NCBI GenBank assembly: GCA_036172245.1
Contig: JAYWIR010000070.1
Span: 124,001-188,000, forward strand
From: Raillietiella orientalis
Taxonomy: Eukaryota
DNA length: 64,000 nt
Direction: 5' to 3'
A program made the translations under genes and the position numbers. Shown piece by piece: positions 32,611-63,843 of this stretch (position 1 is its first letter; each line of letters begins with the position of its first letter). The notes below the pieces were generated by a model. The model had not been told where the DNA came from and did no database searches. It was given only the letters and a program-made list of their open reading frames with translations.

Positions 32611-34109
32611 TTTACCGCTTAACCAAAGAATATGTGTAAAGGTACGTGTGTACCTTCTGGGATGAAAAAATAATGCATGCTAATGTTCATTAGGGATGGG
32701 TTCAATCTGTGCGGAAACACAAGAAGCATGTTTTTATTGATATTAGCGATGGAACCTGCAGCAATTCCTTGCAATTAGTACTTCAGGCAGCCAATTTTAA
32801 ACCCGAAATACATTTCAATTGCAGTGTGGAGGCAATTGGTGTATTGGTAGCAGCTAAAGCCCAACCAGAATTACAGTGTCAGGAGATAAGAGTTATACAG
32901 CCTTGTCACCCCAGTGATGGCTATCCATTCCAACCTGTTACCCATGATCTTCAGTACTTACGTCAGTTTCCTCATTTGCGTTCACGTGTTAGCCCTTTCA
33001 ATGAGATTCTTCGTGTTCGACATGCAGTGTTCCACGCTTTACATGCCTATTTTTTAAAACAAGGTTTTATTCACATAGATACACCAGTTCTTACTGGCAA
33101 TGATTGTGAAGGAAGTGGAAAAGTATTTGCAGTCCAGGTATTTGAATTTTCTGTAAAGCACCTATTACTATATATTTTGTTGCTAGAATGTAACAAATGA
33201 TTCAGAAAGTTCTGGTTTGTTCTTTTCTAGTCCTGTATATTTAACAGTGTCTGGTCAGTTGCATTTGGAGTCTTCCATCAAGTAAGTATTTTATATCGTG
33301 GTTACTTTTACTGGTGGAATTATTAGTGGATTTTCTCAAGTGTATCATATTGGTCCAGTATTCAGAGGTGAAACTGGCTTATCCACTTTGCATTTAGCTG
33401 AGTTTCATATGGTGGAAGCAGAGATAGCATTTTTAGATCAGTTAACAATGTTAATACAGGCTATGGATTCAGTATTTAGGGAGGTGATTCAGAGAGTAAT
33501 GGACACTGATGAAATGAACTTACAATGTATTTGGAAGTATGCTTCTGCAAAACACAAAGTAAGTATCCTACTTGAAGTGTGTCATGTATTCATTCATTTG
33601 TTAAGGAACTAATTAATAGCATTTTAAAGCACTCTTCAGTAATTATGAGTTATGAGGAAGCCATTGCAGTATTGCAAAAGCATAATGACAAGCTGAATAG
33701 TTCAATCTGTTTGGGAGAATCTCTGAGAAGAGAACATGAGTTTTTCTTAGTAGAGTATTCTGGAAATAGACCTGTATTTATTGTAGAGTGGCCACAACAT
33801 TTGAAACCTTTCTACACAAAAGTATCAAGTGATTCACACGCACAAGCAGTTGATTTGCTAGTTGCTAATGTTGGAGAATTAATAGGTGGAACACTCAGAG
33901 AAGATGACCCCAAAGTGCTCTTTTCCAACCTTGAAAGTTTGGGATCACAAGATTCATTAGAATGGTACTATAAGCAACGTGTTTTTGGTGGTGTACCAAC
34001 AGGAGGCTTTGGAATGGGATTAGAACGTTTTCTTTTATTTTTTTTGGGTCTTAAAAATATTCGTGATGTGATACCATTCCCAAGGTGGCCTCATCATTGT
34101 AAGGCGTAG
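32611..34109 (+). CDS. NARS2: Asparaginyl-tRNA synthetase, mitochondrial/bacterial type (5' exon and start not resolved)
   Basis: Spliced translation contains GWVQSVRKHKKHVFIDISDG (OB fold), YLRQFPHLRSR, TPVLTGNDCEG, YLTVSGQLHLE, GPVFRGE...HLAEFHMVEAE (motif 2), GELIGGTLRED and GGFGMGLERF...NIRDVIPFPRW (motif 3); stop at 34107-34109. Confidence 0.92.
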
Positions 34110-35397: not shown

Positions 35398-35415
35398 AAA
35401 TTGAATTTCGAGAAA
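35398..35415 (+). repeat. Left 18-bp target-site duplication AAATTGAATTTCGAGAAA
   Basis: Identical copy at 41063-41080. Confidence 0.92.
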
Positions 35416-35446
35416 GGACCGCAGCCTTTAAGGACTTAGTCAAAAA

Positions 35447-35586
35447 GGAGAAGGGCACGGGCAGTATCATAGGCGAGGAAGGCGACTGAGCCGTGATTAT
35501 TGCTAGTTGAAAACTTTTCCCAATACCCCGCCAAGGCAGTGAGTAACATCACTGCCGCGGCAATTTTTGCGTGCCCCGAGAGGGCA
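35447..35586 (+). ncRNA. U4 snRNA-like sequence (divergent) forming the retrotransposon 5' UTR
   Basis: GGCAGTATC...GATTATTGCTAGTTGAAAACTTTTCCCAATACCCCGCC matches the conserved metazoan U4 core almost exactly. Sm site AATTTTTG at 35562-35569 and 3' hairpin TGCCC-CGAGA-GGGCA at 35572-35586, similar to insect U4 3' ends. Confidence 0.9.
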
Positions 35587-35722
35587 AGTGCTGAGTGAAA
35601 AGACAGTGAGTGCGCAACCAAGGACGTCCCACAGCGACTGCAGCAGCAGAAGCAGCGAAAGGGAGTCCAAGGTGGAGGACTCGCGACCCTCCCTGGCGGC
35701 GGTGCAGCAGCACCCCGTCAAA

Positions 35723-37394
35723 ATGCAAGAGCAGCGGTGGATGGGAGCCACGGAGAAGCCACAGCCCATGGAGGTAGGGCAATCGTGTGTTTCTTCCGGC
35801 GCGACTCCGATGGAAGCGGTGGAGACGACGATGGCGGTGGCGGCGACCCCGGAGACGGCGGTCGCCGGAGCGATGGGAGGGCCCGTAGGCCCCACCGTTG
35901 CTAGTGACGCGACGCCATCTTGCGCGGTGGCTGCGACCGTGGGGCGGCCACCGGCAGCGGCGGCAGCTTTTTCCTATGCGGCGGTGGCGGCTGGGACGGC
36001 GACCACCCAGCCGCAGAGGAAATTCGGGAAGCCAGAGTCTGGGCCGATACGAGACATCGACGAGCCCATAATTAAACTAGGACCGAACGTGACGACGGTC
36101 ACGTTCAAGACTGGACTTATAAAAATGAACAACATCAAAGAGGTATACCTGGCTCTCTACAAACAGCAAGTGGACTTTGACCGCCTGCAGGCGATCGTCC
36201 CGAACACCTTGGGATTCACAGTGTACACCGACTGTGAAGAAATAAGGGAATCCCTAATTGAAAAAGGGATCAACATCCAGGGCAGGATAATGTGTGGCGT
36301 CGGCGAAATGCCGTACACCACCCTATTCCTGAGCGGACTCGGGCCGTTCGTCACCCAAAGGGCTGTGTAGAGGAAACTCGCAGTACGGCGAGGTACTGGA
36401 CAGCAACTTCCACAATATATCGGGAAAGATCTTTTCGGGGGAGGCGACGGTGAAGATGAAGTTGAAGGAGGAAGCCCATGTTCCTGGGATGATCTACTTC
36501 GACGGGGACGACATGGGAGTCTCCGTTCCATATAGGGCGCAGCCAGTTTTCTGCAACGGCTGCAAAACCTTTGGACACCGGCAGCGAGTCTGCCCGAGGG
36601 CCAAGTGCTTCCGCTGTGGGAAGCAGGGCCACCAGGTGCGGGACTGCAGCATGCCAGAGGTGTGTTCGTTCTGCAAGTCTCCGGGACACGCAAAGTGGTG
36701 CTGCCCGGAGTTTGCAAACTACAGAACGATGCGGGATCAATCCCCAGTTAGGACACGGGTGTTGGAGGAGGTAATCAAACCTCAAAGGGCGATGAAGCAG
36801 AGGAAGGCGAAGGAGGCAGCCCCAGTTTCGGCGGACGGCTTCACCACGGTGGGGAAGGGCGGCAAGAGGAGGATGCTCGTGAAGGAGCAAGAATCCTCTG
36901 CTGCGCAGGTCGAGGAGCAGGTTGGCGAGAAGGCCGAAGTAGAGCAGGTTGGCGAGAAGCAGGGTGTGCCGGGAGGCGAGGTGATGGAAATCACCGAAAC
37001 CGTTCTGACATCGCAGGAGGCGGTGCAGCTCACCGAGGAGGTGGTGAAGCTTCCGGAAGAAGTGCAGGGGGAGAAAAGTGAGGTGCAGCAGGAGCAACTC
37101 CTGACTCGCATCAATGAAACCCAACAGGGAATCAACACCCTGGTGATCCAAGAAGAGCGCGAAAAGCTAGAGAACCAGCTTTTCGAAGTGAAAGCGGCGT
37201 ACTGCGCGAAGGTCTCCCTTGAGACACTTCCGCGCAAGGCGATCGCCAGGGCAGAACGCACAATGGAGACAGACCGGGAGTCCACAGACCACACCGGCAT
37301 GGAGAGCGATGCCGGGAGTGAGAAGCCAGCTTCCTCGACGGTGAGACGCGAAAGGTCTCCCCGTCAGAAGAAGCTGAGGAAAGCGAAGCATTAG
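35723..37394 (+). pseudogene. LINE ORF1, gag-like zinc-knuckle nucleic-acid-binding protein (stop/frameshift at ~36368-36381)
   Basis: FSYAAVAAG motif; CNGCKTFGHRQRVC, CFRCGKQGHQVRDC and CSFCKSPGHAKWCC knuckles. The reading continues as QYGEVLDSNFHNISGKIFSGEATVKM after a frame change. First ATG at 35723. Confidence 0.88.
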
Positions 37395-37409
37395 ACTTCG
37401 AACCCTTTC

Positions 37410-40400
37410 ATGTCCTGGTCGCTAGCGAACGCCAGGAGGCTAAACATCGCCTCCTGGAACATCAATGGATTGACAGACCAAGGCAAAAGGAAGACAATCT
37501 TGCGGACCATCGCAAGACAAGACGTAGTGTGCCTACAGGAAACCCACCGTCTCGGGCAACAAAACGCCCAGGAGATGGAACGCCGGTTCAACGGGCAACT
37601 GTTTGTCAGCGAGGGACAAAGGAAGACCATGGGTGTGGCGATCCTCATCAAGAACGAGCTCGTCCACACCCTTCTGGAAACCTTCTGTCCACTCGCTGGA
37701 AGGATAATCGGCGTGCGACTGTCCCGGTCCGACAACGTTCACCTGTTTCTGGTGAACGTTTACGGACCGCACAAGAACAAGCATCGGTGCGCGGAGGCTC
37801 TCCACGAGGCACTCCGCCAACGTGTAGCACCGAAGGACATGGTCATCGTCGCGGGTGACCTGAATATTCAAGACCACATCAAGTACCGTCAAGACATCAG
37901 AGGAAGAGAGGCGTATCGACGGTTGTCCGACGACTTCGGACTCGTGTGGCGAACAGCCAGCCACAAACCGATCGATCACGTCCTTCATAGCGTGGAGATC
38001 GACAACCGAATCCAGGGTTTTCGCGACATTCCTCACCTGCTGTCCGATCACCCTTTGGTTCGGTTCTCCCTCCGCATGGAAAATCCGCGACGGCGAAAAG
38101 CCACTAGGGCGGCGCTCATCTGCATGCCCGCCTGGTTTGAGATGCTTCCCTGTCACCAGGAGGTGATCGAGGCGATTCTGCGGGACACCACCATCCGCAG
38201 AGTCGCCGACTGGGACAGGTTGAAGCATCGGATCCACCTGTTCTGCAACATGCAGTACTTTTGCAAGCGACTGAGGCAAGAAGCGTACCAGGAGCTCAAC
38301 ATCCAAGACCGCTCCCTCTCCAAGTTATATGATCAGTACGAGAGTCGGTACGTCTTCAATAATGTGAAAGGGGAGGTCGGCGTGCTGGAAAAGAAGAATC
38401 TGGCGACAGACATCTTCTGCATCCAGTACGGCGGCCAGAAACGGCACACGTCGGAAGACATCGTGGGAGCATTCCATCAGCACTACGAAGAACACTTCCG
38501 ACGGCAACACACGTGCAAGTCTATGCAGAAAACTTTCCTGAGCTACCTCGAGAAGAACACAAGCGATCTCCAGAGAGACAAACTGGAGGAGGATTTCTCC
38601 GAAGATGAGGTGAAAACGGCTTTTGGGCAACTGCGGAAGGACGTGGCAGCGGGCCCTGATAGTGTACCCATCACGCACTATCAGCGGTACCTGCACGCCT
38701 ACCTGCGCTTGTTCCACCAGTTGACCCTCTGCATCCGTGAAGAAGGAAGACTACCCGAGTCCTTCTACGAGAGTCGGATGAGATTGTTGCCGAAAGGAGG
38801 CGACCTCACGCAGGTCGCCCAATGAAGGCCAATCTCCGTCCTAAACTCCGATGCCAAGTGGTTGGCGAAAATCTGGTCCAACCGCTTAGGCAAGGTCATG
38901 CCGAAGCTCATCTCCGGTCCAAACATGTGCGGTGCCCGGACGCCACATATTGGACAATGTCAAGTGTGCCCATGCCACCGTGGGACTCAGCCGGTACGTC
39001 GGCGAGGACCTGGTGCTGGTGTTCACTGACATGGAGAAGGCTTTCGACTCCATCGACCATGGGATGCTGCTGAAGATTCTGGACAAGCTGGGCCTTCCGG
39101 AATACTTCAGCACCTTCGTGAGATTGGAACTCGAGAACCAGTACTGCCGAATCAAGATCAACGGCGAAGACACGACAGCAATTAGGATGGAACGAGGAGT
39201 CCGCCAGGGCGACTCGCTAAGCCCTATGCTGTTCGTTATTTACATGGAGGCGCTGTCCTCGTGCATCGAGAAGAGTGGACGCCTCCAAGGCATCCAGATC
39301 AACGACCAGCAGCTCACCCACCTGGCGTACGCTGATGACCTTCTCTTCTTCATCAAAGGAGAACGAAATCAGCGTGCATTCCTGGAAGTGGTGACGCTCA
39401 TGGAAGAAGGACTAGGATTAAAGATCAATGCAAGGAAAAGCCAACTTTTGCCCGTCGGAATCCTGGACCTCTCCGTCCTCATGGGGAGAGGATTCCGAAC
39501 GGTGGACACAGCCAAATACCTGGGAGTCCACATTGGCGACGGCCCTGCGTCGAAGCTTTTGTGGGATGAAACCCTGGGGAAAACGGCGAAAGAGGCAGCG
39601 AAGTACACCCGACAGGACCTTGGAATGAAACGCAAGGCCAACCTCTGGAATGGAGTCCTCCTTCCTAAGGTGCTCTTCGGGGCGGCCTTTGCGAGAGTGA
39701 AAAGGGGACACCTCGAGGGAGCTGGAAAAACTGCAAAGGAAGACATTATGGGGCCAATATCGCCCAAGAGTTCGTTTGAAACCCCTATGTCGTCCCAAAG
39801 AAGAAGGTGGAACCGGGATGAAGTCGCTTGCACACTCCATGGCAATCATGGACACCCGACACATCCTGGATATCGCCGAACAATGGGACGACTGGCCGTA
39901 CGCGGCGCATAGGGCCTACTCGATGTTGCTTAACAACTCGAAAGGTCTGATGACTGCGCTGCTAGGCCGAGTAGGGGAGTGGATGACCATCGACCCGACC
40001 TGGAGGAGGAAACAACTGCTGGTACGAAAGTACAAGATCAAGATCGTGCCAAGAAGCAGGGAACTCTGGCAACAGGAGTCCATCCTTGTGATCCCTTGGA
40101 TGCTTCCGGTCCCGGACGATACCCGAGGATGGATCTACCGGCGGCACAGAGTTACCTTGCAACGAATCCAGGAATGGAGAAAAGGAGGCCACCTACATCA
40201 TGCTCGTATACTTCAGTATATCGAGAAGATGCTAGGTAGGTTCACCCACCGGACCCGCGAAGTGTGGATAAACCACGATGACTTTGCGTGGTCCAGGGTA
40301 ACCAAAACAAACCTCCGAAGAATGATAAAGGATCAAGATGAAGACACCAGTGCCCTCCAGGAAGCGTCCAATCGCTACGGAAGCAACAGGATCAACCTGT

Positions 40401-40830
40401 TGGCGATCGGCACGATCCTATGGAGGAGTGACCTTCCTCCGGACAGCCAGGACAACCTCCTGATGTTTTATCACGGAGGAATCCTGAGCGGGTCCAGACT
40501 AAAGTACTTCACAAGAAGAAAAGGAGACGAAGACTGCCCAGCATGTGAAGACACGGATACCAGACTTCACATCCTGACGTGTCCCACATTGCTCCACGAC
40601 TGGCTGATCCTTAAACGGATCATTGGACGCACCACCAGTTCCAGATGGAGATCCTAGCCGGAATGTTTCAGGGGGATGGTAATGTTCCCTGTTACAATCC
40701 CATGGTGAGGACGACCATTGCCCTCTTCATCACTGCGATTCTGGTGCGGTGGTGGAAGATGAGGAAAGCCAGGAGAGCCGCACCTCCGTTGGAGATCCTG
40801 CGAAGACTCCTGAAGAAGGAAATCGGATAA
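37410..40830 (+). pseudogene. LINE ORF2: APE endonuclease, reverse transcriptase and C-terminal zinc finger (disrupted)
   Basis: IASWNINGL, VVCLQETH, VNVYGP, AGDLN, IDHVL, SDH (endonuclease); GPD, *RPISVLNSDAK, DMEKAFDSIDH, GVRQGDSLSPMLF, AYADD, KYLGV (RT); CPACEDTDTRLHILTC. Lesions: TGA at 38823 (expected Trp) and frameshifts near 38915, 39718 and 40640. Confidence 0.93.
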
Positions 40831-41062
40831 GAAATTGTGGAAGACGAGCAGCCTGGACGTACAGACTCATCCTTAAGAGGATTGAAGACGACGCCCGGGA
40901 CCAAACATCCGCATACCCACCCTAAGTGCAGAACTTCAGTGAATCCCAAGGACTTCCAGTGAATACAGAACAAGGAGTGTATTGTATGAATGTGACTGTA
41001 GTGTGAAGGATATTAAAAAAAAAATGAAAATAAATTTACTCCACCCCTTGTGGGACTTGGGA

Positions 41063-41080
41063 AAATTGAATTTCGAGAAA
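41063..41080 (+). repeat. Right 18-bp target-site duplication AAATTGAATTTCGAGAAA
   Basis: Identical to 35398-35415. Confidence 0.92.
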
Positions 41081-42240: not shown

Positions 42241-43872
42241 GTTTCCTCGATATCAGCAATCTGGGGCGAAGAGGAAAGGGACAACAGTCCCATTCAATCT
42301 CCAACAAAAATAATGATGAGAAAAAAGATCCAAAGGTAAAAAGCCAATTAAACCCTTAACACCAAAGGAATTTTGCTGTAGATTCAGGAGTTCAAATTGG
42401 AAGCTGATTCAGAGCTTCGTTTTGAAATTGAGGGCAAAACAGATAGTGCTGCTTTAGAGGTATATGTGATTGTTCAGAATGTGCAGTTTCTTGTAGTTAC
42501 GTTCAGGGATGGCAGAAATCTTTGGTACGGAGTTAGTAAGAGGAAAACAATACAATTTTGGACCAGGGAGCAAAGTGGCTGTTTTTACATGGCAGGGTTG
42601 TACTCTCCTTTTGCGTGGTCGAACAGAAGTAGCCTATGTTGCACGCGAGACCCCTATGGTGCTTTATTTGAATGTTCATGCACAGCTGGAGAAACTAAGG
42701 AGGCAGGCAGAACTCAACAGAGCTCATCCACAAGCAGATGAGGGTCATTCAAAAGGACCAATTAGTCTTGTAGTTGGTCCTACTGATGTTGGCAAATCAA
42801 GTTTTTGTCGCATGCTATTGAATTGGGCTGTTCGTGTTGGCCGGCGACCTGTATATGTTGATCTGGATGTTGGCCAAGGCCATATCTCAGTACCTGGAAC
42901 TATTGGTATTTTCGTGTTGAGATGTTCTGTGCTTCCTTGATGTGTTTAAAATAGGAGCATTGCTTGTTGAAAGACCAGCATCCATAGAAGAAGGTTTCTC
43001 TGCTCAGGCACCATTAATTTATCACTATGGTCACAAAGGTCCTGCTCATAATCCAGCATTGTACAACATGATTGTTTCTCGGTTGGCTGATAATGTTCAG
43101 GAACGTTTGCAAGCTAATCGCAAAGGTATAGAATTACATGATTATAAAAACTGGCAGTGTTTTAATAGCAAGTGTTTCTGGTGTTGTTATCAACACATGT
43201 GGCTGGGTCAAAGGAGAAGGATATCGACAGCTTACTCATGTAGCACAAGCATTTGAAGTAGATTTAATTTTTGTTCTGGATCAGGAAAGATTGTATAGTG
43301 AACTTCTCCGTGATATGCCACAGTTTGTCCATGTTGTGTTGCTTCCTAAAAGTGGTGGTGTTGTGGAACGTAGTCCTACAGCACGTGCTGATGCTCGAGA
43401 TTCAGCTGTAAGGACTTACTTCTATGGCAGTCGAGGACAACTATACCCTCATTCCTTTGAAGTGCGCTTTGCTGATGTTCAACTATATAAAATTGGGGCA
43501 CCTGCACTTCCTGACTCATGCATGCCATTAGGCATGAAAGCAGAGGATAACATGACTAAACTGGTTCCAGTTACACCAGGTTTGAGACAGAATTTAATCT
43601 TACATTATAAAACCTTGTTTGCAGGGCCTCCTCTGTTACATCATTTGCTAGCAGTAAGTTTTGCAGCATCAATAGAAGAAAATGTCATTAATACAAATGT
43701 GGCAGGTTTTGTTTGTGTGTAAGTAGTCAGTTTGTGTGTTTACTAGCCTTCCTGCTGTAGAACTGGTATTGACATGGAACGCCAGACTTTTACGGTGCTT
43801 TCTCCACAGCCACGACCTTTGCCTCAAACTTTGCTGTTGCTCAGTGATGTACAATTTATGGATGAACATTAA
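42241..43872 (+). CDS. CLP1: Polyribonucleotide 5'-hydroxyl kinase CLP1 (multi-exon; start codon not resolved, conserved part from 42382)
   Basis: [36 protein letters not shown]-loop [56 protein letters not shown]...QFMDEH*. Confidence 0.95.
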
Positions 43873-52400: not shown

Positions 52401-55400
52401 TATAAAAAGACAATTAAGAAGGATATACAACCCAATTATAAGCAAAATGGGAAAAAATAGGACACTAAATAAACCTAATGCTTGAGTACTCAGAATATGA
52501 TGGCTATGGAAGTTGTTGTGCCATTAAATAAATAAGTTCTCTTTAATTTGACTTTTTAATTTGTGTTGAAAGGTCAGTGGGGGGAAGGAAGTGGTTTCAC
52601 AAAGAATGTCATGACAAAAATCAGTCTTTGAAAGATTCTTTGAAAACTCTAATTCTTTTAAATAAAAAAGACCATAGAAATGCAGACTTGCAAAATCAAA
52701 AAAATGTAAATAATAAATGATGCAATGCAATCTCAGTAATGAAAATTAATTGGTGAGAATGATATATATTGTCAAATTTGACTGACTATGCAGTTCATTT
52801 AGATGGAAATAAAAAAAAAAAAATTAATTCCCTAACTCAACAAAATGACATGCACATGTAGGATTGCTTTAATGTACACAATTGTTCAACATGGCTTTCT
52901 TTAGAGGACCCCCTTTAAAAAGAAACTAAAACTGCAAATTCTCTTGTGTTTCCAATATTTCAAAGAAATCAGTTTTAATTACTGAATTCGATTTTCCAAT
53001 GTTTTGACAAGGAAAAAAGTTGACTTTTTTTATTCACTAACTTTAATTTGGGTGTACTTTCAGAAGTTTTAAAATTTTCAGGAAGGATGTGGTAAAAAGT
53101 CTTTTAACCAATTTTAGTTTAAATGTTTGTTCTATTGTAGAATTCGTTACTGTTGCTTATATTGGGAATAATTCATATTTACTCCTGTTTTTTTCTTGCA
53201 GTTTGTATTATTTTTGCTTATGTGCTTGATTTTCTTATGTAGAATTTCATTCTGGAGATAAAATTTCTTTTATTTAAGAGCGAGTTGCTTGATTTTTCTG
53301 CTTATGTTTTCCATACTTTTTTCTATCTGTATTCTGATTGTTAAAACAGAATGCCTTACTAACTATATGAAACTGAATAATTCAAGCTAAATGCTCCCCC
53401 AAAAAAGAGATCATATAGTTTATCTTCCTACAAAACTTTGCACTTATTGGAATGCTCATATGTCTTTTCTTGGTCTGTTATATAAAACATTGGCTTAAAG
53501 ATCATGATCAAACAATCAATGCTGTGTTCTAGGTGATTGAATTGGATATCGATCAATTGCCTGATGGCAATGAAGTGATTGGTATACTTCAGCAGGAACA
53601 AGCAGTGCTCAGCTTATGGATCACCTTAGCGGTAATCTTTTTTGTTGAATTGGTTTATCTGAAAATTTTTAAGAGAATGCAAAGCAGAATGATATAGCAA
53701 TGCAAAAGTTTTATATAATTTCAAGGACTATGTTTTCTTGTTAATTTTGGGAGTTAACTTTGTGTTGCTACCATTGTATCCAAGTTTAGCAGCTTTGTGA
53801 TAGCAACACCATTATCATTGAGACATTATTTTAGTTGGAATATTACAAGCAAGGAAAAGAAGACGATTTTGTGAAAATCCTGGAAGCATCTCGAACAGAC
53901 GCTTTTCTTGAATATCGGGATTTTGAACGGGATCAAATGCGTGTATTAGATACACTGGCTGCTTATTATGTACAGAAGGCTAACCGGCACAAAAACAAAG
54001 ATAAGCGCCGTGATTTATTCACCAAAGCCACTTTATTATATACTACAGCTGATAAGATCATCATGTACGATCAAGTATGTCTTAACAGCACTTGTATGTC
54101 TGCATAGCTTTTTGAAAGAATCATTTGCTAGGGCGTGCTTACTTCTGTCTCTTGGAAGGAGACAAAATGGAGCAAGCAGACACACAGTTTAATTTTGTGC
54201 TCAATCAGAATTCAACAAGCATCCCTGCTCTTTTGGGAAAAGCATGCATTGCATTTAACAAAAAAGATTATCGTGCCTCGTTAGCATTATATAAGAAAGC
54301 TCTGCGGACCAATCCAGGTTGTCCAGCAGCAGTTCGACTTGGTATGGGGCACTGTTTTCTGAAATTGGGCAACCAAGAGAAAGCCAGGTTTGCCTGAAAG
54401 CTTATTTCTATTTGGATAACTTACTGGTACTGCAGGTTAGCATTTGAGCGGGCATTAGAACTGGATGGAAAATGTGTAGGTGCCCTTGTAGGCTTAGCAG
54501 TACTTGAGCTGAATTGCCGTACTGTGGAGTCGATTCGCAATGGTGTGCAGATGTTGTCTCGTGCTTACACCATCGATCCCACTAATCCCATGGTTCTCAA
54601 TCATCTTGCTAATCATTTCTTTTTCAAAAAAGATTTTGAAAAAGTGAAACATTTAGCTTTGCATGCATTTCACAATACTGAAAATGAGACAATGCGTGCA
54701 GAGAGCTGTTACCAACTAGCCCGTGCTTTTCATGTGCAAGGCGATCATGATCAGGCATTTCAATACTATTACCAGGCTACCCAGTTTGCCCTTCCCTCTT
54801 TTGTGCTACCGCATTTTGGTCTTGGCCAAATGTATATTCATCGTGGGGATGCAGAAAATGCAGCACAATGTTTTGAGAAAGTACTGAAGGCTCAACCAGG
54901 AAATTACGAGACCATGAAGATTCTTGGCTCACTTTACGCAGGCAGTGGTTCCAGTAACCAACCTAAACGTGATATTGCCCGTCAACACTTGCGTAAAGTT
55001 ACTGAACAGTTTCCTGATGATGTGGAGGCCTGGATTGAACTGGCCCAGATTCTTGAACAGAACGATTTGCAAGGCTCCCTGCAAGCATACAACACAGCTA
55101 GCACCATTTTACGTGAGAAAGTCCAAGCTGAAGTGCCACCAGAAATACTAAACAATGTGGGAGCGCTATACTTTCGGTAGGCATGATAGTTTATATATCT
55201 GTTTACCTTTATTGTCTGTAGTTTGGGAGATTTGCCGAAGGCAGAGCAGAATTTCCTAGAGGCGCTGGAAAGATGCCAACAGGAGGCAAACCATGATCAA
55301 CAATATTACAGTGCAATTTCAGTGACCATTACTTACAATACAGCACGTCTTCAGGAAGCCCTTTATCAGCATGATAAGGCTGAACGCATGTACAAGGATA

Positions 55401-57550
55401 TCCTGCGGGAGCATCCAAACTACGTGGACTGCTATCTGCGTTTGGGCTGCATGGCTCGCGATCTGGGACAGATTTATGATGCTTCAGACTGGTTTAAGGA
55501 AGCATTGCAAATTAATACGGAGCATCCAGATACATGGTCACTTATAGGAAATCTGCACTTGGCGAAAATGGAATGGGGTCCAGGGCAGAAGAAATTTGAG
55601 CGTATCATCAAGGTAGGCTAAGCATAAAAAGAACTAAGTTTTGTTATTTTTTGTTATTGCTGCAGAACACAGAAACTTCTAATGATGCCTATTCCTTGAT
55701 TGCACTTGGCAATGTGTGGCTGCAGACTTTACATCAGCCTTGCAAAGATAAGGAAAAGGAGAAACGTCATCAAGATCGTGCCTTGACCCTTTATAAGCAA
55801 GTTTTACGCGATGACCCGCGGAATATTTGGGCAGCTAATGGTATTGGTGCTGTGTTAGCACACAAAGGTTACATAGCAGAGGCACGTGATGTATTTGCAC
55901 AAGTTAGGGAAGCAACTGCTGATTTCTGCGATGTGTGGCTAAATATTGCTCATGTATACGTTGAGCAGCATCAGTTGGTGTCGGCTGTGCAAATGTATGA
56001 AAACTGTTTGCGGAAATTCTTCCGCCATCATAATGTAGAGGTTCTCCAATACTTAGCACGTGCCCACTACAAGGCAGGCAACCTGAGTCAGGCGAAATCT
56101 GCCCTGCTGCGTGCTTGTCGTGTAGCACCACATGACCTCTTGCTCCTTTATAATTTAGCGCTGGTTTTATTACGCTTAGCTCGCTGTGCTCTCGAAGACA
56201 GTAAATCCACACTTCCCTTAGTGTTGCAATCTGTCCATGAATTGGGAGTGGCACACCGCACTTTCCAGTATTTGGCCAACCTAGGTGTTGATCGCCCCAA
56301 GTATGATCCAGCACAAGCAGCTGCAGAGGCCCGCCTGGCACAAGATGTTCTTTCTCAGGCACAGTACCATGTTGCTCGGGCTAGACGTTTGGATGAAGAA
56401 GAAAGAAGATTGCGCAAAAAACAAGAAGAAGAACGAGAGGCATTTAAACTGAAACAAATTGAAGAACAAAAAAAATTGGAAGAGGCACGCCGAATACAGC
56501 AGGAGGAGTTACTTCGCCGAAGAGAAGAGTACAAAGAGAAGATGAAAAATGCCATCATTTTACGGGATGTGTCCCCTGAAAAGAGTCACAGAAAAAGCAA
56601 GTTGAAGAAACGTGAAGATGATGACATGATCACTGATGGTTCTGGAAGTGAGGATGTGGTTGTGTCACGTGAACCCAAGCCTAGGAAAAAGCGATCTAAA
56701 GAAAAGCCTGACAGAAAAAAGAAGAAGAAAGTCATAAAGAAACCATCTGTTGAGAGTGAAGATGAGGATAGGCGCCGCCAGTTAGAGAGTATCAAGAAGA
56801 AGGTAAGTACATTTACAATGAGGACAGTAAGACCTGCTGTGTGGGTGACCAGGAGAAAATATATTCTGCACCTGATGAAAGAATGAGTAAGGCAAGAAGA
56901 AAGGTTGTCTCTAAAGCAGTTATCTCTTCGTCTAGTGACACTTCTGACAATGGTCAACAATCTTCTAGGTATGTAGACACATTATCTGTCATATAGTGAT
57001 GTGCTTTCCAGAATGGCAAATCAAAAGGCGGGTTCTAGTCGTTTAGTGCAATCCGACAGTGAAAAGTCCAGGTATCTGAAGTGAAAGTTATTCATGTTTT
57101 CAGTTCTTGTGTTTTGCAGGTCCCCATCTGTTTCATCTTCTAACTCACCCAGGTAAACATGATTTTTATAAAATAAGTTTAAAGCCAAACATTTACAGAT
57201 CCCCATCTAGAGTTCAGAAGAATTCAAACCTAAGCCAATCCACACCCAGGTAGGAAAGTCCGAATTTCAAGAGAGTATGCTTTTTTTGTAGCCAATCAGC
57301 ATCACCAGAGAGCCATGTGGTTTCAGCATCCCATTCTCCTGCAAATAGTGCAGATGAAGAAGAGCATCATGGCAATGTTACTCCACGCTCCACATCCAGG
57401 TCTCCTTCTATCGACAGAAATGCTTCCCCATTCGAAAATTCATTGCCTGCAGATGATTCAGAACATGAAACCATGCAGCCAGAATGGGGTAGGGCTTGAC
57501 TGTTGTTCAATTATTTATGTATGCTTCTAGGAGATAGTGGAAGTGATTGA
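49485..57550 (+). CDS. CTR9: RNA polymerase-associated protein CTR9 homolog (PAF1 complex, TPR repeats), multi-exon
   Basis: Exon 1 [14 protein letters not shown] (49485-49526), ~4 kb intron, then [92 protein letters not shown], and a Lys/Ser-rich tail ending GDSGSD*. Exact 3' micro-exon structure is less certain. Confidence 0.95.
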
Positions 57551-61559: not shown

Positions 61560-63843
61560 CTAGAACCCTGCCGTGCTCCCTGGCTTTCTGTAGTCGGCCA
61601 CAGCTTCCCAGGAGCTATTCTTTTGTTTCTTTATGCTGCACAGGTTTGATCCCGCCACCAGCGGCTTCGTGGAGTGCCCGTAGTCCTGCAGGTAGCTCAA
61701 GGTCTCCTGGAACGGCATCCCTTTCTAAGCGAGGCTCGGAGGGGTGTCATTCCGCTGCTTGCGTATCCCTCACGCAGGGCCACTCGCGCTCCGAAACGGA
61801 GGGTGCACTCCGCGTGATGGCAGCGCCAGCTGCTGCAGCCGCGGAGGCACCTGGCACATTAGCAGGCTTTCTGTGGCATCAGGAGAGGTGAGCGAGCGAC
61901 TCCTCCCTTTCTGGCGCAGGGACCGCGTCCTGCGACGACACGACCTCCCCTCTCCCCTTTCTCCCGGCACTGCTGCCCCTCCCGAACCGCGCACGGAACT
62001 TCCTTACGGGGTCAAAGCCCTCGTCGTAGTAGAGGATCATCGGCTCCAGCTGGTGATGCAACCGCGGATAGTCGGTGGCCTCGCGCAAATCCAGACCGGC
62101 CCAGAGAGATAAGCAGGACACCTGGGGAGGCGCCCGATGAGTCGATAGGACGAGGAGGAAGCAAGCCTCTCCTCTCACCCAGGCGACCGACGAGATGATG
62201 CGCACGCCGCCGGCCGCTCCGGTCACTAAGCGGACGTTCCCAGATCCATCCACGTAGATGCTGGCGGCGGTGGACGACAGGGGCATCCTCCCGGGATGGA
62301 TGTAGTTTGCCTGGGAGGGAGGCAGGTCGAAGTAGTTGGCGCTGCCCTCGATGGAGAAGTCATCCATCTCGTCGTTCAGCACGATCCCCGTCGACTGCGA
62401 CCACTCCCCCGAGCCGAAGCTGGATAGGGGCAATGGCTGGAAAGGAGCACGAAGACCCCCCGCCTCACTAGAGGTTGATCGTGCTCGTCATAGAGACCGC
62501 GTCTCCGTTAGGCGCGACGACTGAGAGGTGAGACGTGCCGCTGTCATTGGGAGCTTTGGAGGAGACGACTCCGTAGTCGCTCGGATCCGTGGACGTGCGC
62601 TCCTTGTCAAGGTTCTGCAGGATCCTCGCGACATTCTCGTCTGAGATGATGCTGGACTCGATCTGCAGCGAAAAGGGTCTAACTGCTAGAGGCGCTGTCG
62701 GGAGAAGGCACGACCCTACGTGCTTCACTCCGGGAAAGTCTCCCAGATCGAGGCGCCTGGCGTACGCGTACTTCATGCTCTCCACGAAGCGCCTCGCGAA
62801 CAGCTGGCGGCTAACTGGGTCCTCCTTCCACTGCTTTTCGGTCAACTGGAAGTAGCTCATCAGCTTCATGATTAGGGTGAGGATAGCTCCGCTCGCAGGG
62901 CTCGGTGCCGTGAGCAACCTCAGATCACCGTGGAGGTCCTCCTCGATCGCATCGTCCCAACGGGGTCTAAGGAATCACGGGATTCAAGAGGTGGGGAAGC
63001 AAAGGAGGAAGGGAAGAAGAAAGGGGAAGGAATGGAGCAAGAGGAAGGGAGGAAGGAAGGGAGGAGCGAGGAGGAAAGGTAGAAGAGGAGGAGGAAGAGA
63101 AAGGAGGCATATACGCACTTGTAGCTCCTTAGGTCCTCGGCCGTGATGATGCCTCCTATATCCTGGATGTCCCGGAGAAATCCTTCGCTGAGGCGTCCCT
63201 CGTAGAGCGCCTTGGCTCCATCTGCGGCCACGATCTCCAACGTCTGGCAGTAGACTCTGGGCGTGAATGTGCTCCCAAGGGTAAGGTTGGAGAGGAAGTT
63301 CCTGGTGATGGTGGCAGCAACGAAGGTCTTCCTCGTGCCAGATCGGAGCCGACCCGGACTGTCAATACCTCAGACCGTCTCCTAAGCGGTCCTCCTTGTG
63401 AGTGACCTCGATGGCCTTCCACATGTGCTTGTGCACGCGGATCCCTCTCCAGCACAGATCAATCGAGGGCTGCACCAGCTGCGACCAGGGAAGTCTTCCG
63501 TACATCCGGTGAGCTTCCTGAAGACCCTTCAGCTCCCCAGGGACGGCTATGGACATCCCGCCTGTGCGGAACGCGGCGTCAGAGAGGGCAGAGAAGAAGG
63601 GTCGCCGAAGAAGCGGGCTGACCTTTCATGGAGGAACTCCCCTCTCTCTTGAACATGTCACGTGTGGCCGCCGCTGGGGCAGTTTCCCTGGCGAAGAGCG
63701 TCCGGGCCTTTCGTTCTTCCTTCAGGTAGACGACCATGATGAATCCACCCCCAAGGCCTTTGCTGTGCATGTTGGCTAGGCTGAGGCAGAAGGACGCTCC
63801 GATAGCGGCGTCCACGGCCGTCCCGTTCCTCAGCAACAGATCT
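61560..63843 (-). CDS. Gamma-glutamyltranspeptidase / glutathione hydrolase family protein (5' end beyond window)
   Basis: NGTAVDAAI, GLGGGFIMVVY, ARETAP, SIAVPGELKG, YGRLPWSQLVQPSI, ESMKYAYARR, catalytic GTSHLSVVAPNGDAVSMTSTIN, GIVLNDEMDDFS, PLSS, PRLHHQL, last exon ...AVADYRKPGSTAGF*; minus-strand AATAAA at 61538-61533. Confidence 0.93.

Follow-up and report, generated by a model that had tools for sequence, protein, structure and literature searches.

In a 64,000-nt stretch of the Raillietiella orientalis genome (GenBank assembly GCA_036172245.1, contig JAYWIR010000070.1, positions 124,001 to 188,000 of the forward strand; hereafter the window, in whose coordinates all positions are given), we identified a full-length long interspersed nuclear element (LINE) whose 5' untranslated region (UTR) contains a diverged segment derived from the U4 small nuclear RNA (snRNA). 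A single perfect pair of 18-bp target-site duplications (TSDs) encloses both the U4 part and the LINE, and the two were therefore mobilised as one unit, just as a preliminary description of this DNA had proposed from the position of the U4 match inside the repeats. The explanation we favour, to which we assign a probability of roughly one half, is that the element is a template-switch chimera of LINE RNA and U4 snRNA that was joined at least one generation before the present insertion, and whose U4-derived head travels as 5'-UTR cargo.

The limits of the element are marked by the direct repeat AAATTGAATTTCGAGAAA, which a repeat search of the window recovered at both ends with 18/18 identical positions (Table 1); since the two perfect 18-nt copies lie 5.6 kb apart, the repeat is not due to chance. 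The DNA between them is a 5,647-bp non-LTR retrotransposon with a GC content of 55%, compared with 31% and 36% in the two flanks. The U4 match begins 31 nt into the element, and a further 137 nt separate it from the ATG of the first open reading frame (ORF1) at 35723, so that the positions given earlier for the U4 segment and the TSDs, as well as the distances of about 30 nt and about 135 nt on either side of the head, all proved correct. At the 3' end a long poly(A) is not present, and the terminal ...GGG directly abuts the AAA that opens the duplication. The element was inserted into an AT-rich intergenic region that has an asparaginyl-tRNA synthetase gene on one side and a CLP1 gene on the other. 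A likeness of the 12 nt preceding the 5' TSD to the last 12 nt of the element (8/12 by eye) was set aside as chance.

To establish the identity of the head we relied on the U4 covariance model, a check that had been suggested for positions 35400-35600. The cmscan search returned Rfam family RF00015 at 83.4 bits (gathering score, 46), and U4 is the sole Rfam match at gathering score within the window (a permissive scan gave 3 matches in total, among which U4 alone exceeded the gathering score of its family). All three hairpins of U4 are retained. The Sm site AAUUUUUG is an exact match and lies between the 3' stem-loop and the terminal hairpin, both of which are predicted, while the central single-stranded region, from the end of the 5' stem-loop to the start of the 3' stem-loop, shows a single departure from the consensus. 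Compensated pairs preserve the stems of the 5' stem-loop, where both tandem G.A pairs that form the kink-turn (K-turn; G32 A33 / G43 A44) are likewise present. When the whole 5' UTR (35416-35722) was folded with RNAfold, the minimum free energy was -118 kcal/mol (z -3.65, with 0/100 shuffles as stable); the 3' and terminal hairpins were recovered cleanly, and the bases of the 5' stem-loop were paired inside a larger predicted structure.

The segment had been described as a near-complete U4-like RNA at 35447-35586, a wording that holds in so far as the model is covered from end to end but fails at the very beginning, where positions 1-6 have no match to the U4 consensus; in our reading of the printed alignment, homology to U4 starts at about 35453. 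The conserved 5' end that pairs with U6 is thus not found in the head. Positions 8, 12 and 18 also differ, and these are lower-case (that is, variable) in the consensus. In addition, the head has a G at each of two conserved positions of the K-turn loop, 29 and 31, where the model has A and U; the human U4 loop reads A29 A30 U31 in the portion of PMC2952850 that describes it. Judged by its sequence, the head is therefore U4-derived, and is neither a U4 gene nor a faithful copy of U4.

That the U4 part and the LINE entered this site together leaves the question of whether the former could have been added to the UTR later, as a separate insertion. We rejected this possibility, as neither a nested TSD nor a second U4 fragment was found. 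Local alignment of the sequences before and after the U4 part, in search of a nested TSD or repeat, reached a score of 14, which was equalled or exceeded in 166/500 shuffles, and the search for a second, degenerate U4 copy in 35586-35722 gave a score of 19 (81/500 shuffles as high or higher). This latter interval is probably the LINE's own 5' end. The leader that precedes the head gave short, chance-level matches only when its origin was sought elsewhere in the window. About 10 nt past the 3' end of the U4 segment there is a purine-rich stretch (35595-35611) that loosely resembles the snRNA 3'-box motif. We judged the match weak; if the box were real, the U4 part would have been copied from a gene or a primary transcript, not from the mature snRNA.

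The remainder of the element is that of a LINE. ORF1 encodes three zinc knuckles of the form CX2CX4HX4C (Table 1), and ORF2 encodes an AP-endonuclease-like (APE) domain (about 37449-38051; Exo_endo_phos, PF03372, E 2.8e-18) followed by a reverse transcriptase (about 38826-39680; RVT_1, PF00078, E 8.6e-21) and, towards the C-terminus, a CX2CX8HX3C motif at 40535. With this order of domains and flanking TSDs identical at 18/18 nt, the element belongs to the APE-type LINEs. Its nearest relative of solved structure is the human LINE-1 (L1) ORF2 protein (ORF2p), which matches the reverse transcriptase piece with an E value of 1.6e-20 and the APE piece with an E value of 6.8e-15.

This copy is nevertheless defective. 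ORF2 is interrupted by an in-frame TGA at 38823-38825, immediately before a reverse transcriptase motif reading RPISVLN, and by frameshifts near 38905-38925 and 39700-39715, with tblastn alignments to distant relatives running through frames 3, 1 and 2; in ORF1, the translations place a further change of frame near 36350-36370. The preliminary label of an autonomous-type LINE is accordingly right for the architecture, with its ORF1 and ORF2 and its APE and reverse transcriptase domains, but not for the copy itself, which is dead by virtue of one stop codon and three frameshifts. A single in-frame stop among 1,635 codons, given that 4.1% of single substitutions create stops, suggests that some 0.5% of decay has accrued from the last working ancestor onwards, and the probability of seeing at most one stop would be 0.09 at 2% decay and 0.0005 at 5%. 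The coding part has therefore decayed by about 0.5%, and by at most 2%. The perfect TSDs agree with a young insertion of this kind.

Further copies were sought at the level of both nucleotides and proteins. BLASTN of the element against the window returned the self match only, and tblastn with five pieces of the ORFs gave 5 high-scoring segment pairs in the window, all of them self. Among 1.84 billion protein representatives, the reverse transcriptase piece had 45,384 matches at E <=0.001, the best 150 of which are only 26-38% identical to it; that protein collection consequently includes no member of the family. A word-based search among longer proteins yielded 3 matches with 22-31% identity. 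In metagenome contigs, a pattern for the N-terminal part of ORF1 hit 312 stretches, with 0 confirmed, and a 24-nt pattern specific to the head gave 0 hits; prokaryote genome contigs gave 0 for the head pattern and 0 for a U4 core pattern, and viral contigs 0 for the U4 core pattern.

Table 1 Features of the U4-headed LINE, in window coordinates
Feature	Position	Strand	Basis
5' target-site duplication AAATTGAATTTCGAGAAA	35398..35415	+	18-nt perfect repeat of 41063-41080
Leader: 31 nt ahead of the Rfam match and a further 6 nt aligned to U4 positions 1-6 without any match	35416..35452	+	U4 alignment
U4 snRNA-derived segment	35447..35585	+	RF00015, 83.4 bits, E 4.6e-17, model 1-138/138
Rest of the 5' UTR, between the U4 match and the ORF1 ATG	35586..35722	+	
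ORF1, one frameshift near 36350-36370; three CCHC zinc knuckles from 36552, 36606 and 36663	35723..37394	+	Translation; Pfam zf-CCHC E 5e-05
ORF2 with APE endonuclease and reverse transcriptase	37410..40657	+	Pfam PF03372, PF00078
3' UTR, 405 nt, AATAAA at 41029, terminal ...CTTGGG	40658..41062	+	Sequence reading
3' target-site duplication AAATTGAATTTCGAGAAA	41063..41080	+	18-nt perfect repeat of 35398-35415

How, then, might a U4 segment have come to head a LINE? In the scenario we favour, the reverse transcriptase, on arriving at the 5' terminus of the LINE RNA, would have continued onto the 3' end of a U4 snRNA, a template switch of the sort by which snRNA/LINE chimeras are known to form. 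The two would have been joined at least one generation earlier, giving rise to a chimeric full-length parent, and transcription of that parent from a start upstream of the U4 piece would explain the leader. The present copy would then descend from one RNA, made up of a leader of 31-37 nt, a U4 segment without its first six bases and a full-length LINE, that was inserted once, and the head would be a passenger in the 5' UTR of a LINE lineage. Two features of the sequence agree with such an origin. The U4 match reaches the last position of the model, which fits copying from the 3' end of the U4 RNA, and the arrangement, with U4 placed 5' of the LINE in the sense orientation and one pair of TSDs round both, is the layout of known snRNA/LINE chimeras.

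The case for a parent rests on the age of the copy. At the decay estimated for the coding part, and with TSDs identical at 18/18 positions, about 0.7 changes would be expected in the head from the last working ancestor onwards, with about 3 as the upper limit, so that a fresh chimera made from the mature U4 of the host would differ from it by about one base, or three at most. Animals are expected to possess a canonical U4, and since the neighbouring CLP1 exon identifies the host as an animal, a canonical U4 is expected here as well. The head, by comparison, is preceded by a foreign leader and departs from conserved U4 positions (1-6, 29 and 31) although the coding part has decayed by no more than 2%, and it was therefore probably inherited from a chimeric parent. 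A precedent for a leader in front of an snRNA head is offered by SINEU-2, a subfamily of short interspersed nuclear elements (SINEs) whose 5' extensions, according to the part of PMC4494074 that deals with them, were taken from the flank of the master copy.

The UTR itself bears on this account in two ways. The 307 nt of 35416-35722 contain 0 ATG triplets, compared with 2.5 expected from dinucleotide shuffles (P 0.04) and 4.0 from mononucleotide shuffles (P 0.0135), which fits long service as a UTR; and the change in the K-turn loop of the head removes what is an AUG in human U4 (A30 U31 G32, as given in the pertinent portion of PMC2952850), a weak sign of the same service, as its value depends on the U4 sequence of the host.

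Several considerations weigh against an inherited chimera. The inheritance is deduced from a single copy, and the support that the missing ATGs lend to it is weak. If the U4 of the host, or an expressed variant of it, had the same K-turn loop as the head and similar 5' bases, the argument from age would collapse and a one-off event would be the simpler explanation. Moreover, a template switch alone accounts neither for the leader of 31-37 nt nor for the six missing bases of U4.

Chimeras of human L1 with U6 and, more rarely, with U1, U2, U4, U5, U3 and 5S RNAs are known and, in the sections of the bioRxiv report that treat them (10.1101/2025.02.02.635956), are unique and non-propagating, typically joining a full-length U6 to a 5'-truncated L1. 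The element described here shares with them, as they are portrayed there, an snRNA that lies 5' of the LINE in the sense orientation, is complete at its 3' end and is enclosed with the LINE by one pair of TSDs. It differs in that its LINE is full length (UTR, ORF1 and ORF2), whereas theirs is a 5'-truncated 3' end, and in that the snRNA lacks its first six bases, is preceded by a leader of 31-37 nt and does not abut the TSD. The U4 part, furthermore, departs from conserved positions, and the relationship of the LINE to L1 is distant (its reverse transcriptase piece shares 26-38% identity with its best 150 matches among the 1.84 billion protein representatives, and matches human ORF2p with an E value of 1.6e-20). 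The element thus works like a template-switch chimera but without two typical features of that class, namely an snRNA abutting the TSD and a truncated LINE.

These comparisons bear directly on a second possibility, which we regard as rather unlikely: that the chimera arose once, in this very insertion, the reverse transcriptase having jumped from LINE RNA to U4 (or to the transcript of a U4 variant or pseudogene), stopped at position 7 and then either jumped again or added bases. A single event of this type is the sole behaviour documented for the human snRNA/L1 chimeras, each of which is unique in the account given in the same preprint, and double template jumps have been documented for a fungal LINE (PMC2104539). 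The perfect TSDs would suit it too, as would the failure to find a second copy in the window, the protein collection or the metagenome and prokaryote contigs scanned. The difficulty lies in the head, which differs at U4 positions 1-6, 29 and 31 far beyond what at most 2% coding decay allows, unless the template was a non-canonical U4. A one-off event would also need two unusual features together, a truncated snRNA and an extra leader, whereas the U6 of U6/L1 chimeras is consistently full-length in the passages of the preprint devoted to it (10.1101/2025.02.02.635956). It is chiefly the departures of the head from conserved U4 positions that lead us to prefer the inherited chimera.

Template switching could be dispensed with altogether if the source LINE had been situated just downstream of a U4 gene or pseudogene, whether by chance or by preference, and a transcript started upstream had carried the flank along by 5' transduction or target-site read-through. 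The leader and the diverged U4 would both be explained as genomic flank, and some LINE lineages do target snRNA genes: Keno (of the Tx1 clade, with an APE) and Utopia (of the NeSL clade, with a restriction-like endonuclease) are non-LTR retrotransposons found in U2 genes, as set out in the portions of PMC4640811 and PMC4494074 concerned with them. Like the present element, they are LINEs physically tied to a spliceosomal snRNA sequence, and Keno shares its APE; as described in those same portions, however, they interrupt an snRNA gene and have U2 flanking both ends, whereas in the present element U4 is matched in full on one side and lies inside the TSDs. An insertion of the Keno or Utopia type into U4 was accordingly ruled out, the 3' flank being a non-U4 TSD in an unrelated AT-rich site and the U4 model being complete upstream.

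The same observations, that this copy does not sit in a U4 gene, that its 3' flank is an AT-rich TSD and that on the 5' side U4 is matched in full, tell against transduction from such a site. As positions 1-6 are not U4-like, the flank would moreover have to be that of a pseudogene and not of a gene, and it would be very unlikely for a LINE to have its 5' end next to a 140-nt U4 pseudogene by chance. As of 2015, the snRNA genes named as targets of transposons in the pertinent section of PMC4640811 were only those of U2 (Keno and Utopia) and of U1 and U6 (Dada). Taken together, these points make transduction of a genomic flank improbable.

Sm rings and trimethyl caps direct the import of small nuclear ribonucleoproteins (snRNPs), and the preliminary description had ventured that the LINE may exploit this by U4 mimicry. 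Selection would then keep the Sm site and the hairpins, and an Sm ring on the LINE mRNA would lead to hypermethylation of the cap, to greater stability or to nuclear (re-)import. The Sm site AAUUUUUG and both flanking hairpins do agree with the model, either exactly or by way of compensated pairs, a single difference is seen in the central region, with the changes clustered at the 5' end and in the K-turn loop, and the loss of the loop AUG (relative to the human U4 of PMC2952850, in the portion cited above) from a 307-nt UTR without any ATG could be accommodated. The proposal nonetheless fares poorly, in that the U6-pairing 5' end and two K-turn loop bases are changed in spite of the intact Sm site and hairpins. 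It is represented by one copy only, and that copy is dead; the uneven spread of changes may merely mirror how the U4 of the host differs from the Rfam consensus; and such a mechanism was not found in print in an open full-text literature search. We hold functional mimicry to be very improbable, and the transfer of snRNP import or stabilisation to a 5.6-kb mRNA is speculation.

Nor does the head supply a promoter. Upstream of U4 there are only 31 nt of element before the TSD and AT-rich host DNA are reached, which leaves no room for an external promoter, and in the part of PMC4494074 that addresses the point no internal promoter is reported for snRNA genes; the earlier statement that a U4 head would give no internal promoter is therefore sound. 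The Sm site of the head contains a run of T5, which would also stop RNA polymerase III, given that oligo-T terminates this polymerase (as noted in the same part of PMC4494074).

Finally, an assembly artefact joining a U4 pseudogene locus to a LINE can practically be dismissed, as a false join between the two would not yield matching 18-bp TSDs outside both the U4 part and the 3' end of the LINE.

Among elements with snRNA-derived heads, a close parallel is SINEU, a group of crocodilian SINEs with heads derived from U1 or U2, for which template switching has been proposed as the origin (Kojima 2015, in the part of PMC4494074 that treats it). As in the present case, a retroposon bears an snRNA-derived head without an internal promoter, and some subfamilies have 5' extensions in front of it. 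The SINEU elements are, as characterised there, short, non-coding and multi-copy, and carry U1 or U2 heads, whereas ours is a coding LINE with a U4 head of which one copy is known. In a full-text literature search, outside which subscription journals and Repbase reports fall, we found neither a LINE headed by U4 or by another snRNA nor a transposon that targets U4. The term 'U4 snRNA' is not mentioned in PMC8869645, and a tandem repeat from a frog, for which Dfam shows similarity to U5 and U4 (PMC12054243), is unrelated to LINEs.

The element lies between genes of the host. Just upstream, a class II aminoacyl-tRNA synthetase is represented by two large exons (32694-34109, forward strand) with OB anticodon-binding and tRNA-synt_2 domains. 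As their best match of solved structure is a bacterial-type asparagine-tRNA ligase (E 4.1e-31), the sequence may encode an organellar asparaginyl-tRNA synthetase. Downstream, a CLP1 exon (polyribonucleotide 5'-hydroxyl-kinase; 43132-43722, forward strand) contains the Pfam domains CLP1_P and Clp1 and matches human CLP1 (chain 8hmy_E) with an E value of 9.3e-68 and the C. elegans chain with an E value of 6.9e-46, which points to an animal as host, one whose exons are long and whose spacers are short and AT-rich.

Elsewhere in the window, long open frames with TPR repeats (54398-56886, forward strand) and two gamma-glutamyltranspeptidase exons (61879-62974, reverse strand) represent ordinary host genes. 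A 22-kb stretch at 6000-28000, with a GC content of 43-56%, contains, on each of the two strands, numerous open frames of 150-330 codons that overlap one another; Pfam matches were found in 0/9 of the frames tested there, and the translations do not have the look of proteins. A hairpin at 1793-1859 has sub-threshold matches to microRNA precursors on both strands (mir-4766 at 31.5 bits, with a gathering score of 72, and mir-451 at 23.9, with a gathering score of 66.5), and is probably microRNA-like by chance. The window contains no tandem repeats at a score >=80 and no tRNA genes.

What is new here is a LINE copy of full length that lies between TSDs and has a diverged U4-derived segment as part of its 5' UTR. 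Until now, chimeras of snRNAs and LINEs had been known as by-products that lead nowhere, and heads derived from snRNAs had been known from short SINEs (SINEU) alone. If the element proves to be the result of a single event, it would be an unusual but ordinary by-product of reverse transcription, and if U4 mimicry were true it would be the first coding retrotransposon with a functional head derived from an snRNA. In principle, a coding LINE of full length whose TSDs enclose a U4 head could transmit that head. Should other copies share it, the element would provide a direct example of LINEs gaining 5' UTR material by template switching and would represent the first LINE lineage with an snRNA-derived head, in which the effect of an Sm site on retrotransposon RNA could be tested.

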